Positions 46,879 through 51,663 of a DNA stretch of 64,000 nucleotides are shown here, in pieces. The DNA comes from an archaeon. Its GTDB lineage: Archaea; Nanobdellota; Nanobdellia; Pacearchaeales; GW2011-AR1. Under the pieces are notes generated by a model. That model ran no database searches. It worked only from the letters and a program-made list of their open reading frames with translations, and was not told where the DNA came from. The DNA lies in the NCBI GenBank assembly GCA_024278335.1, contig JAJRTJ010000003.1, positions 11,586 to 75,585 on the forward strand, written 5' to 3'. The position numbers and the translations under genes were made by a program. Positions within the stretch are counted from its first letter, which is position 1; each line of letters opens with the position of its first letter.

Positions 46879-46998
46879 CTTAATTTTTCTTTGATTTCTT
46901 TGCTTTTATTCTTTACTAATATCTTGCATTGTTACCTTAAAGGTTGGTGAGGAATAAAAAATAGAAAGATTGAAATATCTTCAGACTATAAGATTTTT

Positions 46999-48245
46999 AT
47001 GGTAGAAAAACAATCTAAAAACAACAAAAAGATAGAGAAAGTTGAAAAGAAAAGTAAAGATATTAAGAAGTGGGTAGAAAAAGAGATAATAATAAGGGAA
47101 TGGTTTGGGAAAGGAAAATTATCAGTAAGTATCACTAAACCTTATGATGAAAAAAATGATCCAAGTAAAAAGATTAGTTTATTTAAAGGGTGGATTAATA
47201 AGGAAAATCAATCCCCCGTACCAAACATAATAAACAAGGGTAAAGCATTTTATAATAAGCAAAAGTTTACTATAAAAAACTATGACGATTTAGTTGGAAT
47301 ATTGGAAGCGATACAAGAATGTGCTAAAGAATTGGGTTGGGAAGTTGAAGAGACTATTTCTACAATATATAGCAATAAAAAATTAACAAGTCAATAACAG
47401 ATTTAATTGAAAAGAGTCCCGAATCTGGATTAAAGATATTAAAAGCATTTTCTGATGAGATTAAAAAGAAAGGAAAAATTGATGAAAAAGATTTATATTT
47501 ATTCAACAATTTAATGGAAGTTATTTTTGATACAAAAAATAGTGTTGAATTAAAAAGAAAAGAAGAATTAAGAGATTTAATCCCAAAATTAAGTGAAGAG
47601 GATCCAAATGCTCTTGAAGTTTTTAATAAATTAATTGATGACTGGTATTTGGAAGACATTAACACTTACACATTGGCTTTAACAAATCGTATTTCTAGGA
47701 TTGACGAATTTGGAGATTTAATTACAAATGAAAAAGCATATGAAACAAAGAGGAAAGATAAAATCAACTCTGTCCATGCCTTCTTAGAAAAGAATTTCTG
47801 GATTATTGATAAAGATTATAGATTAATTTCAAGTGATGTCACAATTAAAAAATTAGTTCAAAAAGATTTAGAGAAAAAAGATAAAAGCCAAGAGAAAAAG
47901 AGACCTGATTTTGTCTTTATGAGTTCTAAAGATAATTCTGTTTTGGTAGTAGTCGAAATTAAAAGGCCAAGTCATAAATTAAAAATAGAGGATGGAAATC
48001 AATTAATGAACTATCGTTCTCTTTTAGAAGAATATTTGAGTAAAAGATTCAAAATCTTTAAAGGGTTTCTGATTGGAAACAAATTAGATAGCACTTTAGA
48101 AAGGAATAAAAAAGGATGGAGCGAGATAAAAGTCAAGACATATTCAGAGATCATTAAGGAAGTTCGTGGAGAATATGAAGAACATTTAAAGGCATTAACA
48201 GAAAAGAAAGATATTCATTTAAAATCTAAGAAACAAAAGAATTGA
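46999..48245 (+). CDS. Frameshifted ~415-aa protein with C-terminal PD-(D/E)xK nuclease (ORFs 46999..47397 and 47514..48245 joined)
   Basis: The second frame opens at 47379, inside the A6 run at 47377-47382. Nuclease motifs are HAFLEKNFW, RPDF, VVVEIKRP and QLMNY. Confidence 0.75.
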
Positions 48246-49162
48246 TTCTTGCTCATCTTAATCAACTCCAACCACTTATTATTTTCTTTCAATTCCAAAT
48301 CAGTAGCCAATTCATAAGGACATCTCCCTATTGCCTGATGTTTCCTTATGAAATTATAGTAAATTTCAATTCCTTTCATTATTGCTTGTGCAGATTCCAA
48401 ACTTCCATGAAAACCCCTAAATGTCTTAGTCCTTTCCCTTATTGAATTATGCAACCTCTCAATAAACAGATTAAATCCTTCTCCTTTTGAAGCATTAACT
48501 TTGTTATGAATTATTGTATATCTTCCTTTCTTGTTGTCATAACCCCAAGTTTTTTTAACAACATTTTCATAAGCAGTTAAGCCGTCTGTTGTAATTGTTG
48601 TTACATAACCTTCTGTTTTGTATTTGACTTTTCTCAAAACTTCTTTAATTTCTGTTTTTTCTCTTTTCTTAACATATTTTGAGGCAACCATGAAACGAGT
48701 ATGAACATCAATAGAATCAATAAACCAATCTTTGCAGACTCCTTTTTTCTTGTGTTCTTCTCTCCTATGATATTCCATTTCATCTATTTGAATCTCCTGT
48801 CCTGTTTTTACTTTTAGTTTATCTGTAAATTTGCTTATCATTTTTGAATATTTTACAACCCACTTATAGATGGATTTATGGCTTGAATTATGGGGGTAAA
48901 ATGCTTGAAAATGCTCCTGCACTTTTCTTGTTGAAACCCCTTTATAGAATAAATCAATTGCACAAGTTATTTTATTTGGATGATTTCTCATTCTGAAAAA
49001 TCCATCATCAATTGTAAAAGTCTTGTTACATTCTTTACATTTGTATCTTTGAATTAATCCTCTGTTTTGTGTTTTTCTTTTTGTCCATTTTATTACACTA
49101 CTGCTTTTACAATTAGGGCAAATCTTTTTAACTTCTGCTTTCTTATTTTTATTGTTATTCAT
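48215..49162 (-). CDS. IS6-family-like DDE transposase with N-terminal Zn ribbon
   Basis: CPNC…RYKCKEC, an HTH, and IQIDE / ITTDG / IERLHN; the frame is intact. Confidence 0.9.
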   Translation of the reverse strand: MNNNKNKKAEVKKICPNCKSSSVIKWTKRKTQNRGLIQRYKCKECNKTFTIDDGFFRMRNHPNKITCAIDLFYKGVSTRKVQEHFQAFYPHNSSHKSIYKWVVKYSKMISKFTDKLKVKTGQEIQIDEMEYHRREEHKKKGVCKDWFIDSIDVHTRFMVASKYVKKREKTEIKEVLRKVKYKTEGYVTTITTDGLTAYENVVKKTWGYDNKKGRYTIIHNKVNASKGEGFNLFIERLHNSIRERTKTFRGFHGSLESAQAIMKGIEIYYNFIRKHQAIGRCPYELATDLELKENNKWLELIKMSKNQFFCFLDFK

Positions 49163-49215
49163 TTTGTCGTGGATAACAAAGAGGGGTGTTCGCGCACCCT
49201 TCTTCTCTCTATTAT

Positions 49216-49283
49216 TATATACCTATTAGGTATATAGCCTTTATAAATATTTCTATTATTGAGTATATAAGATTAGGTATATA
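49216..49283. promoter_or_regulatory. Palindromic operator(s) in the divergent transposase/zinc-ribbon promoter
   Basis: TATATACCTA-T-TAGGTATATA at 49216-49236; the half-site ATTAGGTATATA recurs at 49272-49283; TTTATAAA boxes on both strands. Confidence 0.65.
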
Positions 49284-49320
49284 TCAAAAGGTTTATAAAT
49301 AACAAAGACATTATTTTGTT

Positions 49321-49500
49321 ATGGGAAAGAAAGAAGAGGAATTTGGATATAATGTTTTTATTAAGGGAAATAGATGTTATAGGTGCGGACATAAATGGGT
49401 TCAAAGAGAAAATGATAAACCGCGCATATGCCCAAAATGTAAATCTCCTTATTGGGATAAACCAAAGACTAAATTTGTAAAAGAAGATAAGAGAAAATGA
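49321..49500 (+). CDS. 59-aa zinc-ribbon protein (not in the ORF track)
   Basis: CYRCGHKW…PRICPKCKSPYWD; ATGA overlap with the next gene. Confidence 0.88.
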   Translation: MGKKEEEFGYNVFIKGNRCYRCGHKWVQRENDKPRICPKCKSPYWDKPKTKFVKEDKRK

Positions 49501-49760
49501 ATAAACAAGAAGAAATTTTAGAATTAAAAAAACTATACTTAATCCAATTTGAAAAATTTGAAACAAAAGTTTTTCTTTCATGGTTAACTATTTTTTTTGG
49601 AGTGTTTATTGCATGGATATATGGGAAGGTTAATGGCTCGCTTGTAATAATACTTGCGCTATTTACAATGCTTTTAGACGGAATAATTGAGTTATGGAGA
49701 AAGAAATCATTTAATATAGTTATAAATGAAATAAAAGAAGAAAATCTTGGAGAAATTTAA
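49497..49760 (+). CDS. Small 2-TM membrane protein
   Basis: Two hydrophobic helices; translationally coupled to the zinc-ribbon gene. Confidence 0.7.
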   Translation: MNKQEEILELKKLYLIQFEKFETKVFLSWLTIFFGVFIAWIYGKVNGSLVIILALFTMLLDGIIELWRKKSFNIVINEIKEENLGEI

Positions 49761-50802
49761 AATGAAAACAGAACACAAAATAATTTTTGGTGATGCAAGA
49801 AACATGAGGGAGTTAAAAGATGAAAGTGTAGATTTAATGATAACTTCCCCCCCTTATCCAATGATTCAAATGTGGGACGAGATGTTTGGAAAACAAAACC
49901 CCGAGATTACTAAATCATTAAGAGAAGAAAACGGAGAAAAAGCTTTTGAGTTAATGCATCAAGAGCTGGATAAAGTTTGGAATGAAACTTTTAGAGTTTT
50001 AAAAAATGGAGGAATTGCATGTATAAATATTGGTGATGCAACGAGAACACTTAAGAGAGTTTTCCAAATTTATACAAATCACGCAAGAATACTAAATCAT
50101 TGTTTAAAATTAGGATTTCATGCCCTACCAGAAATACTTTGGATTAAAGAAACAAATAAACCCGATAAGTTTATGGGTTCTGGAATGTTGCCTGTTGGGG
50201 CTTATGTTACTTTAGAGCATGAACATATTTTAATCTTAAGAAAAGATGGAAAAAGAAAATTCACGAAACCGGAGCAAAGAGCAAATAGGCAAAAAAGTGC
50301 TTTCTTTTGGGAAGAAAGAAACATCTGGTTTTCTGATAAATGGAAAGATATAAATGGGGTTTTTCAAAAATTAAATGACACGAAATTAAGAGAAAGAAGC
50401 GCGGCCTATCCCCCAGAACTCACTTATAGATTAATAAGCATGTTTTCTGTTCAGGAAGACTTAGTTTTAGACCCTTTTTTAGGAACAGGAACAACAACTT
50501 TTGGAGCTATGGCTTGTGGAAGAAATAGCGTCGGTTATGAAATAGACCTTAATTTTAAGGGGCATATAGAGAACAAATTAATGCAAGTTAAAGAGCCTGC
50601 AAATAAGTTTGTAGAATTACGATTAAAAAAACATAAGGAATTTGTTAAAAAAAGAGAGCAGGAAAAGGGAAAACTAAAGTATTACAATAAAAATTACGGT
50701 TTTCCTGTTATGACAAGACAAGAAATTAATTTACATATTCCAAAAATAAAAGAGGTTAGAAAAGTTAAAGAAAATTTATTTGGAGTGGAGCACGAATTTT
50801 AA
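49747..50802 (+). CDS. Beta-class N4-cytosine/N6-adenine DNA methyltransferase
   Basis: Motif IV TSPPY precedes motif I DPFLGTGTT. Confidence 0.93.
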   Translation: MEKFKMKTEHKIIFGDARNMRELKDESVDLMITSPPYPMIQMWDEMFGKQNPEITKSLREENGEKAFELMHQELDKVWNETFRVLKNGGIACINIGDATRTLKRVFQIYTNHARILNHCLKLGFHALPEILWIKETNKPDKFMGSGMLPVGAYVTLEHEHILILRKDGKRKFTKPEQRANRQKSAFFWEERNIWFSDKWKDINGVFQKLNDTKLRERSAAYPPELTYRLISMFSVQEDLVLDPFLGTGTTTFGAMACGRNSVGYEIDLNFKGHIENKLMQVKEPANKFVELRLKKHKEFVKKREQEKGKLKYYNKNYGFPVMTRQEINLHIPKIKEVRKVKENLFGVEHEF

Positions 50803-51539
50803 TCTATATTCAAGTAATTTTTTATTTCTTTGATTATCTCTTCTTCGTGTTTAAATTTACCCTTTTTATCTGAATAAATTGTTATAACTTTTCCATCATA
50901 TTTCGATTGTGCATTTTTATTATGTGCATCTATTAAGGGGGTTCCTCTAGAATTAGAGGGTTTTATCTGCACTCCTATTTTCTTTTTTCCATCATCAGAA
51001 AATATCTCTCTATCAATTCCCATCTTAGTATCAACATCCCCTTCTGTTTTGATTATCTTCTTAACTCCAATTTTTTTTAATTTTTCAACAACCGCATTTT
51101 CTGTTTTAATTATCCCTTCCCAGGTATTATCAAGAACATATTGTTTTATACATTCTTGACAATCGCTTAAATCTATTTTACCTAACACTTCTAAGGCTTT
51201 GTTTAATCTTTCTATTTCTTCTGGTATCCATTCAAATAACTTTTTACCCTTTTCCTTTAATTCTTCTTCTGTTCTTCCATATTTTTTATTTATAGATGAA
51301 ATAAACTTTTTTAGTGCTGTTTTTTTCATTTCTTTAGATTGTTTTTCAATTAAATTTTTTCTTATTTCTCCAGATTTTAAATAGAAATCTTCCCATTCAC
51401 TTTTTTCCTTAAAGTTATCACTCAATATTAAATCTGTAACTTGTCCTACAGAATTAGGTCCGCATAATCTGTGCCTTTCCACTATCGGGTTTAATACCCT
51501 TTCTTTTTCTCTAGGAATCCTCTTTTTACTTTCACTCAT
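50799..51539 (-). CDS. Putative type II restriction endonuclease (MjaI-family-like)
   Basis: GPNSVGQVTDLI…EWEDFY N-terminus and ID…GVQIKP catalytic-type motif; convergent with the MTase. Confidence 0.72.
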   Translation of the reverse strand: MSESKKRIPREKERVLNPIVERHRLCGPNSVGQVTDLILSDNFKEKSEWEDFYLKSGEIRKNLIEKQSKEMKKTALKKFISSINKKYGRTEEELKEKGKKLFEWIPEEIERLNKALEVLGKIDLSDCQECIKQYVLDNTWEGIIKTENAVVEKLKKIGVKKIIKTEGDVDTKMGIDREIFSDDGKKKIGVQIKPSNSRGTPLIDAHNKNAQSKYDGKVITIYSDKKGKFKHEEEIIKEIKNYLNID

Positions 51540-51663
51540 AAATTTTTTAATAAAAAGAAATTTAAAAAGCTATCTACCAACCGCTAAGGTAACAATGCAC
51601 TAATATCTAAATTTTTATAAACTTGTATTTATGTTTTATTTAAACTAAACTTAGTTTAGTATT

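Follow-up and report, generated by a model that had tools for sequence, protein, structure and literature searches.

A cargo-bearing transposon family of DPANN archaea with a single-base insertion register at BRE/TATA-like motifs

Insertion sequences (IS) of the IS6 family are described as elements of 0.7–0.9 kb, a few of them up to 1.76 kb, that generate 8 bp target repeats and normally move cargo as pseudo-compound transposons; the review of the family names a single passenger-bearing member, ISDsp3 (PMC7986276). Bacterial restriction-modification (R-M) units have been described that lie inside imperfect inverted repeats and an 8 bp target duplication and for which a relative shows the empty site; the authors state that none from archaea passed their selection (Furuta, Abe and Kobayashi 2010, PMC2853133). 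The stretch of DNA analysed here, 64,000 nt of contig JAJRTJ010000003.1 from an archaeon of the Pacearchaeales (hereafter the window), carries a 4675 bp element (46925–51599 of the window) in which an R-M gene pair and one transposase lie between inverted repeats and a 9 bp duplication. It is very probably a DNA transposon with one transposase, autonomous now or until very recently, from a large family of Woese- and Pacearchaeota (DPANN archaea) that inserts at the promoter edge.

Tn7-like elements and cargo-bearing IS (tIS) combine one transposition module with variable passengers, among which defence systems are prominent. Promoter-directed integration is known from Ty3 (at Pol III start sites), Ty1 and Tf1, the integrases of which are tethered by transcription factors. 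The family described here differs from Tn7-like elements, with their TnsABC/TniQ-type machinery, in having a single DDE transposase, no resolvase, another host domain and another target rule. Like Ty3, Ty1 and Tf1 it integrates at a constant distance from a landmark of transcription initiation and spares coding sequence in a compact genome, but those are retroelements and this is an archaeal DNA transposon. With the units of Furuta et al. the window element shares R-M genes within inverted repeats, a short duplication and an empty site. Those units are, however, bacterial and mostly without a linked active transposase, and the available text describes neither a shared-transposase family with exchangeable cargo nor promoter targeting. 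A search of the literature, with ISfinder and supplements outside it, found no description of this family or of promoter-edge targeting by an archaeal transposon; in the accessible part of a 2026 survey of archaeal IS the word 'passenger' does not occur, and 'cargo' occurs only in the reference list (PMC13343696). The family is apparently undescribed, obligately cargo-bearing and IS6-related. Base-precise promoter-edge targeting by a passenger-bearing family is new relative to the literature searched and to a first-pass annotation of the window, from which this specificity was absent.

Family census and target register

The ends of the window element are terminal inverted repeats (TIRs) of 24 nt that match at 22/24 positions (92% complementary), and a perfect 9 bp duplication, CTAATATCT, lies directly outside both arms. 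Both had been reported in the first-pass annotation and both were recovered in the sequence. The left-arm sequence matches only two sites in the window, one exactly and one with 2 mismatches (expectation from 100 shuffles, 0.00), and these are also its only sites in the 575 kb, four-contig genome when up to three mismatches are allowed. Two window matches of the 9-mer alone are not significant (reached in 20/100 shuffles), and the duplication is counted as signal because of its position against both arms, not because of its copy number.

The transposase is present in 23 of 61 related genomes. A scan of GTDB species representatives gave 228 transposase relatives, and the protein database holds 1505 transposase clusters at E ≤ 1e-5, almost all unnamed. 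Among the best 80 related loci of the 228, the titles name Woese-, Pace- or Nanoarchaeota or an 'archaeon', except for one 'bacterium', so that the DPANN host proposed earlier is borne out by the titles of 79. Elements were delimited by a perfect 9 bp direct repeat abutting an inverted repeat of at least 15/20 matches that spans the transposase. This gave 45 of the 80 genome loci, which together with the window element and four further loci from genome searches make up the set of 50 elements used below. They are 1890–9244 bp long (median 4097) and each has a 9 bp duplication. When the repeat length was varied, TIR-plus-repeat pairs numbered 49 at 9 bp, 12 at 8 bp, 1 at 10 bp and 3 at 11 bp, against 2 after shuffling; these comparisons were used instead of a reversed-sequence control of the repeat search, which by symmetry gives identical counts and is uninformative.

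The sequence AAAnnTTTAWAWA (at least 9 of 11 informative positions) forms the first 13 host bases outside the duplication in 47 of 100 half-sites. At the other offsets from −20 to +29 it is found in at most 5 of 100 (3 at −1, 5 at +1), and its background rate is 0.59% per position. It adjoins at least one side of 45/50 elements and both sides of three; the 45 include L109, the left flank of which is outside the 47/100 count and in which the motif was read from the flank sequence. The rule was formed on the genome loci and then tested on metagenome contigs, where 21 of 80 loci could be delimited, three of them duplicates of the first set and 18 new (one of these loci, L195, looks spurious). The motif stands at offset 0 in 13 of the 18 new elements, and in 13/36 half-sites compared with three or fewer at any other offset. 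In the window, AAATTTTTATAAA begins at the first base after the right duplication and matches at 11/11 positions, and the identical 13-mer is found in the empty ftsY–apgM spacer of 7 of 13 relatives examined. The family inserts at a single-base register against the upstream edge of this host motif, which in the window is the motif of the apgM promoter; the 9 bp target there was spacer adjoining the divergent ftsY promoter region.

Across the host genome the motif starts exactly at −34 from the start codon in 136 of 506 open reading frames (ORFs), and at −35, −33 or −32 in a further 82; −34 is the position expected for the transcription factor B recognition element and TATA box (BRE/TATA) of leaderless archaeal genes. 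From these position statistics and the known form of archaeal BRE/TATA sequences, the motif can be read as a putative BRE/TATA-like promoter motif. The −34 peak also implies that most genes of this genome are leaderless with a very uniform BRE/TATA spacing. An outward ORF lies within 150 nt of 38/46 motif flanks (modal distance 34) versus 19/50 other flanks. In 25 elements the motif stands at the transposase-5′ end and in 17 at the 3′ end, without strong orientation bias. Of the 21 elements that have no zinc-ribbon gene (see below), 20 keep the motif; an element's zinc-ribbon protein is therefore dispensable in cis. Alongside the one-sided motif, the 9 bp targets of the 50 elements show a weak palindromic preference, C-n-n-T-n-A-n-n-G (positions 1/9 at 38%, 4/6 at 55%).

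The same pattern could arise by random insertion, with survivorship in compact genomes sparing genes and core promoters. The genomes are indeed tiny and gene-dense (575 kb here, with the very short locus spacers given below), harmful insertions would be purged quickly, and the sample consists of fixed insertions in assemblies. Selection would, however, tolerate any site upstream of the BRE or between convergent gene ends, whereas nearly half of the half-sites fall on one exact offset with hardly any at the two neighbouring ones, a concentration repeated in the second set, and so this explanation carries little likelihood. Under the preferred explanation, insertion by a target-selecting transposase, the enzyme would cut both ends of the element and join them to a 9 bp staggered target, the position of which would be measured from the promoter motif. 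The landmark may be read either by direct recognition of the DNA or by contact with bound TATA-binding protein and transcription factor B (TBP/TFB). Insertion in this manner would leave the host core promoter and genes intact, which would suit a 0.6 Mb genome with very short spacers.

DPANN genomes are among the smallest cellular ones, and their gain and retention of accessory genes are poorly understood. The element family is a concrete vehicle for both, always carrying passengers, swapping them between close relatives and landing where an insertion would be least harmful. If the target rule holds, it could help to map promoters in uncultivated archaea and might provide a tool for insertion at safe sites. 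A further-reaching proposal, which we consider tentative and rather doubtful, is that the transpososome has more than an A/T-rich preference, docking on a BRE/TATA occupied by TBP/TFB and inserting at a set distance from this landmark. The motif is one-sided (both flanks in 3/50), shows no strong orientation bias and is independent of the zinc ribbon, which fits an asymmetric protein landmark better than a symmetric DNA preference. Were the proposal true, the family would be the prokaryotic equivalent of promoter-tethered integration of the Ty3/Ty1 type, and the principal vehicle by which genes reach safe sites in ultra-small DPANN genomes, among them R-M systems, surface proteins, glycosyltransferases and even an aminoacyl-tRNA synthetase (aaRS) and Cas1.

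Insertion locus, modular layout and relation to IS6

The element lies between the divergent genes ftsY and apgM. In relatives, ftsY is the divergent neighbour at 19 of 24 apgM loci, with 209–452 bp between the aligned protein parts; of the remaining five, one has ftsY at 1166 bp and four have no ftsY within the 1.5 kb flank. The start-to-start spacer between the two genes is 34–157 bp and gene-free in the 13 relatives examined, and subtracting the element and one duplication copy from the window leaves a spacer of 101 bp. The first-pass annotation had proposed a search for relatives with an empty site. They were found, with ftsY and apgM as immediate divergent neighbours and too little room for an element, and the opposite case, a relative that keeps R-M genes here but has no transposase, was not seen. 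The ancestral empty site is demonstrated in these relatives; because their spacer is empty, the insertion is the derived state and the R-M genes are foreign to the ftsY–apgM locus.

The ends of the family have the consensus T-g-CATTGTTAC-n-TTAA-c-GG-t-TGgTA, and each consists of an inverted repeat of about 25 bp and about 15 bp of subterminal sequence. Where the transposase gene adjoins an end directly, its stop codon is 38–41 bp from that end, or its start codon 277–361 bp; the latter interval is filled by a small zinc-ribbon gene if one is present. This gene occurs in 29/50 elements (27 free-standing, 2 fused to cargo), always antisense to and immediately upstream of the transposase gene. 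In the two fusions the zinc-ribbon domain is joined N-terminally to the cargo protein (L095 7261–7857, with Fic; L061 7285–7887). The transposase plus zinc-ribbon core predicted to mark relatives is often shared by them, but the zinc-ribbon gene belongs to 29 of the 50 elements, not to all. Cargo occupies one or both of the slots outside the core, and no cargo-free element (about 1.3 kb, with a family-type repeat pair) was found among the 50 elements or among 119 loci with sufficient flank.

The DNA likeness of the window element to L051, L039, L038 and L040, the transposases of which are 76–84% identical to that of the window, is confined to the ends of about 40 bp and the core. Only L051 shares the methyltransferase gene as well (79% identity in DNA, 74% in protein), at a different site and with its own duplication. 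TIR-bounded relatives with the same transposase and different cargo, another expectation of the first-pass annotation, do exist, and among their genes are type II, IIG, C5, Dam-like, EcoRI-like and Mrr-fusion R-M genes. The ends and the zinc-ribbon–transposase core are conserved, and the cargo is swapped between close relatives. Two related loci are on viral contigs, in neither of which did the TIR-plus-duplication search find a family-type element.

According to the IS6 review, the family usually moves cargo as pseudo-compound transposons (PMC7986276), which would favour another history for the locus, namely an ordinary short IS (zinc-ribbon gene and transposase) sitting within an older R-M island, with outer repeats that are unrelated to it or are composite remnants. 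There is very little chance of this. Neither a second transposase nor an inner end of the family type occurs in the element, its outer ends follow the consensus found with this transposase irrespective of cargo, and the 9 bp duplication brackets all 4675 bp at a locus that is gene-free in relatives. Moreover, L051 has the same methyltransferase and MjaI-like pair with a 78%-identical transposase. The non-composite architecture asserted in the first-pass annotation agrees with the lack of a second transposase copy or internal family-type end, on which grounds a composite transposon was rejected. An R-M unit moving by long target duplication was also considered and rejected.

The transposase is matched by Pfam DDE_Tnp_IS240 (38.3 bits; cut-off 27, passed). 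Its best family match is the NCBIfam IS6 model NF033587, which it reaches with 69.9 bits, under the cut-off of 125 bits, followed by IS481 and IS256. None of 21 related genomes reached the IS6 cut-off, compared with four control genomes that exceeded it. In an alignment of 11 sequences, D152, D193, E235 and R242 fall in invariant columns, as do C15, C18, C42 and C45, and the zinc-domain models NF050000 and NF048018 score over cut-off. The enzyme is full length with conserved catalytic residues, as stated earlier of an intact DDE transposase. By tblastn, residues 15–286 align, with an identity of about 25%, to clostridial genes that bear the annotation 'IS6-like element ISCpe7 family transposase'. 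The alignment covers the zinc region, and the N-terminal CxxC zinc ribbon followed by a DDE domain is shared with IS6 clade h (ISCpe7 type), where the zinc finger comes before HTH and DDE; a basic residue seven positions after the DDE glutamate is shared as well. The designation 'IS6-like' stands as the best family match and in the Pfam domain, but only as a distant relationship.

As an IS6-related lineage, the family breaks the rules of IS6. IS6 elements make 8 bp duplications, the window element and its family 9 bp ones; they are short and carry only a transposase, whereas the window element has 4675 bp and its family 1.9–9.2 kb with internal cargo; and the family adds the divergent small zinc-ribbon gene and the promoter-edge target. 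The ends may differ too: IS6 ends are short conserved repeats of about 14 bp that usually start with GG, and those of the family mostly start with T-x-CATTG. A divergent member, L032, is the only one with ends starting GGTTCTG, which may resemble IS257-type ends. In 3.8 kb around an ISCpe7 transposase on a Clostridium perfringens plasmid, inverted repeats and duplication could not be delimited. No ORF of the window element has a Pfam or NCBIfam match to a Tn3 transposase or resolvase, and the duplication is 9 bp and not 5, so that a Tn3-type unit transposon was rejected. With its passengers and one transposase in one pair of ends, bounded by a duplication, the element belongs to the cargo-bearing IS (tIS) or unit transposons.

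Several observations weigh against a presently mobile transposon with so exact a target. No second intact copy exists in the 575 kb genome, so current activity is only putative; the ends differ at 2/24 positions, and a frameshift interrupts the left cargo gene. Identity between the endonuclease and the MjaI-like enzyme of L051 is only 24%, though the two methyltransferases are 74% identical, and given this divergence and a weak family match the R-M pair is only putatively working. As to the census, 35/80 genome loci and 59/80 metagenome loci, mostly on short or cut contigs, yielded no TIR-plus-duplication pair, and the counts describe delimitable loci. As to the target, 5/50 elements have no motif at the junction, the apgM start in the window is 55–61 nt from the motif and not 34, and the promoter identity of the motif comes from position statistics and the known form of archaeal BRE/TATA, not from mapped transcripts.

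The single intact copy, the end mismatches, the frameshift and the diverged endonuclease would also be expected of a fixed, decaying and immobile insertion, in which the transposase is kept for other reasons or not yet lost and the R-M genes act as an addiction module only. That the element is immobile in this sense is improbable, since the transposase has its full length and every conserved catalytic and zinc-binding residue, the duplication is perfect, many family members have perfect 20/20 ends, and a 93%-identical transposase (P0001) is found elsewhere. P0001, the closest transposase, is on a contig of 4723 bp, near the size of the element, and this contig may be the element assembled alone. 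IS6 elements transpose replicatively through cointegrates; for the favoured transposon, a single copy with its duplication would be expected from a simple insertion as well as from a cointegrate that was later resolved. Searching the host genome with a loose regular expression for family ends returned mostly noise, in which only the two elements and a possible solo end appear genuine. Besides the window element there is a decayed family member of 1674 bp (G000:C2:130246–131919, corresponding to L004 529–2202, outside the window) with its own 9 bp duplication, AGGTTTTTG; its transposase is cut short at 147 aa, and it carries an HsdS-like gene of 277 aa (Methylase_S, E 5e-19). The possible solitary family-type end, ACCATTGTTAATTCTACGG..., is at G000:C2:163414, and no partner of it was found.

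Putative promoters and leader inside the element

The features of the element are collected in Table 1. Each transcription unit has its own BRE/TATA-like motif, at −34 for three of them and at −90 for the transposase. The zinc-ribbon and transposase genes are divergently transcribed, with 158 bp between their starts. The upstream cargo slot holds an operon of zinc-ribbon, two-transmembrane (2-TM) and methyltransferase genes and a convergent endonuclease gene with a promoter of its own; the downstream slot holds the broken nuclease gene.

Table 1. Features of the window element and its junctions (positions in the window)
Feature	Position	Strand	Basis
Target-site duplication, left copy, CTAATATCT	46916..46924	.	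Abuts left inverted repeat
Left TIR (transposase-3′ end)	46925..46948	+	Fits family end consensus
BRE/TATA-like motif, exactly 34 nt before left cargo gene	46965..46977	+	10/11 positions
Left cargo gene, N-terminal part, 132 aa, no family match	46999..47397	+	71% identical to residues 6–131 of P0122
A6 run, frame change in left cargo gene	47377..47382	+	P0122 alignment
Left cargo gene, C-terminal part, 288-aa open frame, PD-(D/E)xK nuclease of HSDR_N type	47379..48245	+	Profiles, P0122
Transposase, 315 aa, N-terminal CxxC...CxxC zinc ribbon and DDE domain	48215..49162	-	Pfam DDE_Tnp_IS240, alignment
GC-rich hairpin in transposase 5′ leader; next stretch able to pair with codons 2–4	49184..49199	-	z −4.58
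BRE/TATA-like motif of transposase, 90 nt before ATG, leader about 56 nt	49240..49252	-	11/11
BRE/TATA-like motif 34 nt before zinc-ribbon gene, likely promoter of zinc-ribbon–TM–methyltransferase operon	49287..49299	+	11/11
Small zinc-ribbon protein, 59 aa, divergent from transposase; frequent family core gene	49321..49500	+	Present in 29/50 elements
87-aa protein with two hydrophobic stretches, no family match	49497..49760	+	Translation, profile search
Beta-class N4/N6 DNA methyltransferase, SPPY early, FLGTG late	49747..50802	+	PF01555 N6_N4_Mtase, PADLOC
Divergent MjaI-family restriction endonuclease	50799..51539	-	PF09568 RE_MjaI; PADLOC REase_II
BRE/TATA-like motif 34 nt before endonuclease start	51561..51573	-	9/11
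Right TIR (zinc-ribbon/transposase-5′ end)	51576..51599	-	Pairing with left arm
Target-site duplication, right copy	51600..51608	.	Abuts right inverted repeat
Host BRE/TATA-like motif AAATTTTTATAAA, upstream of apgM, target landmark	51609..51621	+	11/11

The hairpin in the transposase leader (z −4.58) is matched in folding by 0/200 shuffles. All leaders of this type (25/25) have a hairpin at the same place; the stems, which pair fully, have 18 different sequences, and in many of these leaders the bases after the hairpin are able to pair with transposase codons 2–4. When 21 transposase leaders were aligned with MAFFT, RNAalifold predicted no pairs, the variable stems being misaligned, and the hairpin is based on per-sequence folding and stem finding and not on alignment covariation. 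The hairpin, together with the stem enclosing the start codon, may keep translation of the transposase low. A second type of transposase promoter occurs in 11 elements (L082, L073, L061, L095, L077, L116, L030, L109, L111, L071 and L075). These have no hairpin, and direct repeats of 8–10 nt, resembling an operator pair, bracket a consensus BRE/TATA at −34. The zinc-ribbon gene is missing in 9 of the 11 and is the cargo-fused form in the other two (L061 and L095).

Cargo of the family and of the window element

Local profile searches found a DNA methyltransferase in 26/50 elements. Three type IIG-like fusions add to these, for a total of 28–29/50 with DNA methyltransferase or R-M genes, and one further element has a decayed methyltransferase with PD-(D/E)xK and EVE genes. 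Pfam searches on 128 cargo ORFs from the 40 elements without earlier annotation matched 98 families in all, including N6_N4_Mtase (11), C5 methylase (3), N6_Mtase (3) and D12 (2), MjaI and MvaI/BcnI endonucleases, Fic (3), radical SAM (3), Laminin_G_3 (3), SpoU, NUDIX and Cas1. Among the non-defence cargo are trypsin-like and SDH-type proteases, a PMT-type glycosyltransferase, a CDP-alcohol phosphatidyltransferase and a class I aaRS-like gene. The last of these is at L078 5220–6380 (tRNA-synt_1b, E 3e-34), and one Cas1 (E 5e-75) is among the 128 ORFs. R-M genes are the commonest cargo of the family and not the sole one. The term 'defence transposon' used in the first-pass annotation suits this majority, but the other elements carry unrelated cargo and the family is no pure defence carrier. 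So many R-M types on one archaeal transposition module bear on the view of R-M systems as selfish mobile units. For the element, such cargo may protect the host from foreign DNA, and post-segregational killing would penalise its loss.

Judged by its predicted products, the payload of the window element is a type II R-M pair and a broken nuclease gene. The left cargo is one gene of about 420 aa interrupted by a frameshift, as the 371-aa protein P0122 spans both pieces (71% and 84% identity). Mutation, misassembly or slippage might account for the frame change at the A6 run, and these look alike in the sequence. A whole nuclease gene had been placed earlier at 47514–48245 (243 aa); the PD-(D/E)xK domain is there, in the C-terminal frame of the frameshifted gene, and the payload cannot be called 'complete'. 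The C-terminal part matches HSDR_N_2 with E 3.4e-4, below cut-off. Its match to SduA has E 3.7e-6 (24 bits), and Shedu is an intact single DUF4263 PD-(D/E)xK gene while this gene is split; the nuclease is possibly Shedu-like.

On the right side, the zinc-ribbon protein, the 2-TM protein, the beta-class methyltransferase and the MjaI-like endonuclease named in the first pass agree with profiles and translations. The nearest ESM Atlas clusters to the zinc-ribbon protein are unnamed proteins of 50–65 aa and were uninformative. The 87-aa 2-TM gene overlaps the end of the zinc-ribbon gene and the start of the methyltransferase gene, and constitutes a 258 bp insertion relative to the otherwise collinear L051, which is without it. 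The methyltransferase scores 123 bits with PF01555 and 502 bits over its full length with PADLOC MTase_II. Its true start is likely ATG 49762, judging from the L051 methyltransferase, which is 74% identical from M6 on. In DNA methyltransferases (S/D)PPY is the catalytic and FxGxG the S-adenosylmethionine-binding motif; SPPY and FLGTG are present in the translation, and the gene agrees with a type II R-M methyltransferase.

The endonuclease gene lies tail-to-tail with the methyltransferase gene with a 4 nt overlap. Its product scores 55.9 bits with PF09568 RE_MjaI (cut-off 22.7) and only 24 bits with PADLOC REase_II. MjaI is specific for CTAG, and avoidance of CTAG was considered as a sign of MjaI-type restriction; it was rejected, the observed/expected ratio (O/E) of 0.44 being milder than for GTAC and GATC, with nothing element-specific. 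Across the whole genome some 4 bp palindromes are strongly avoided, GTAC with 23 occurrences observed versus 358 expected (O/E 0.06) and GATC with O/E 0.20, which suggests that this genome may long have been exposed to GTAC- and GATC-specific restriction.

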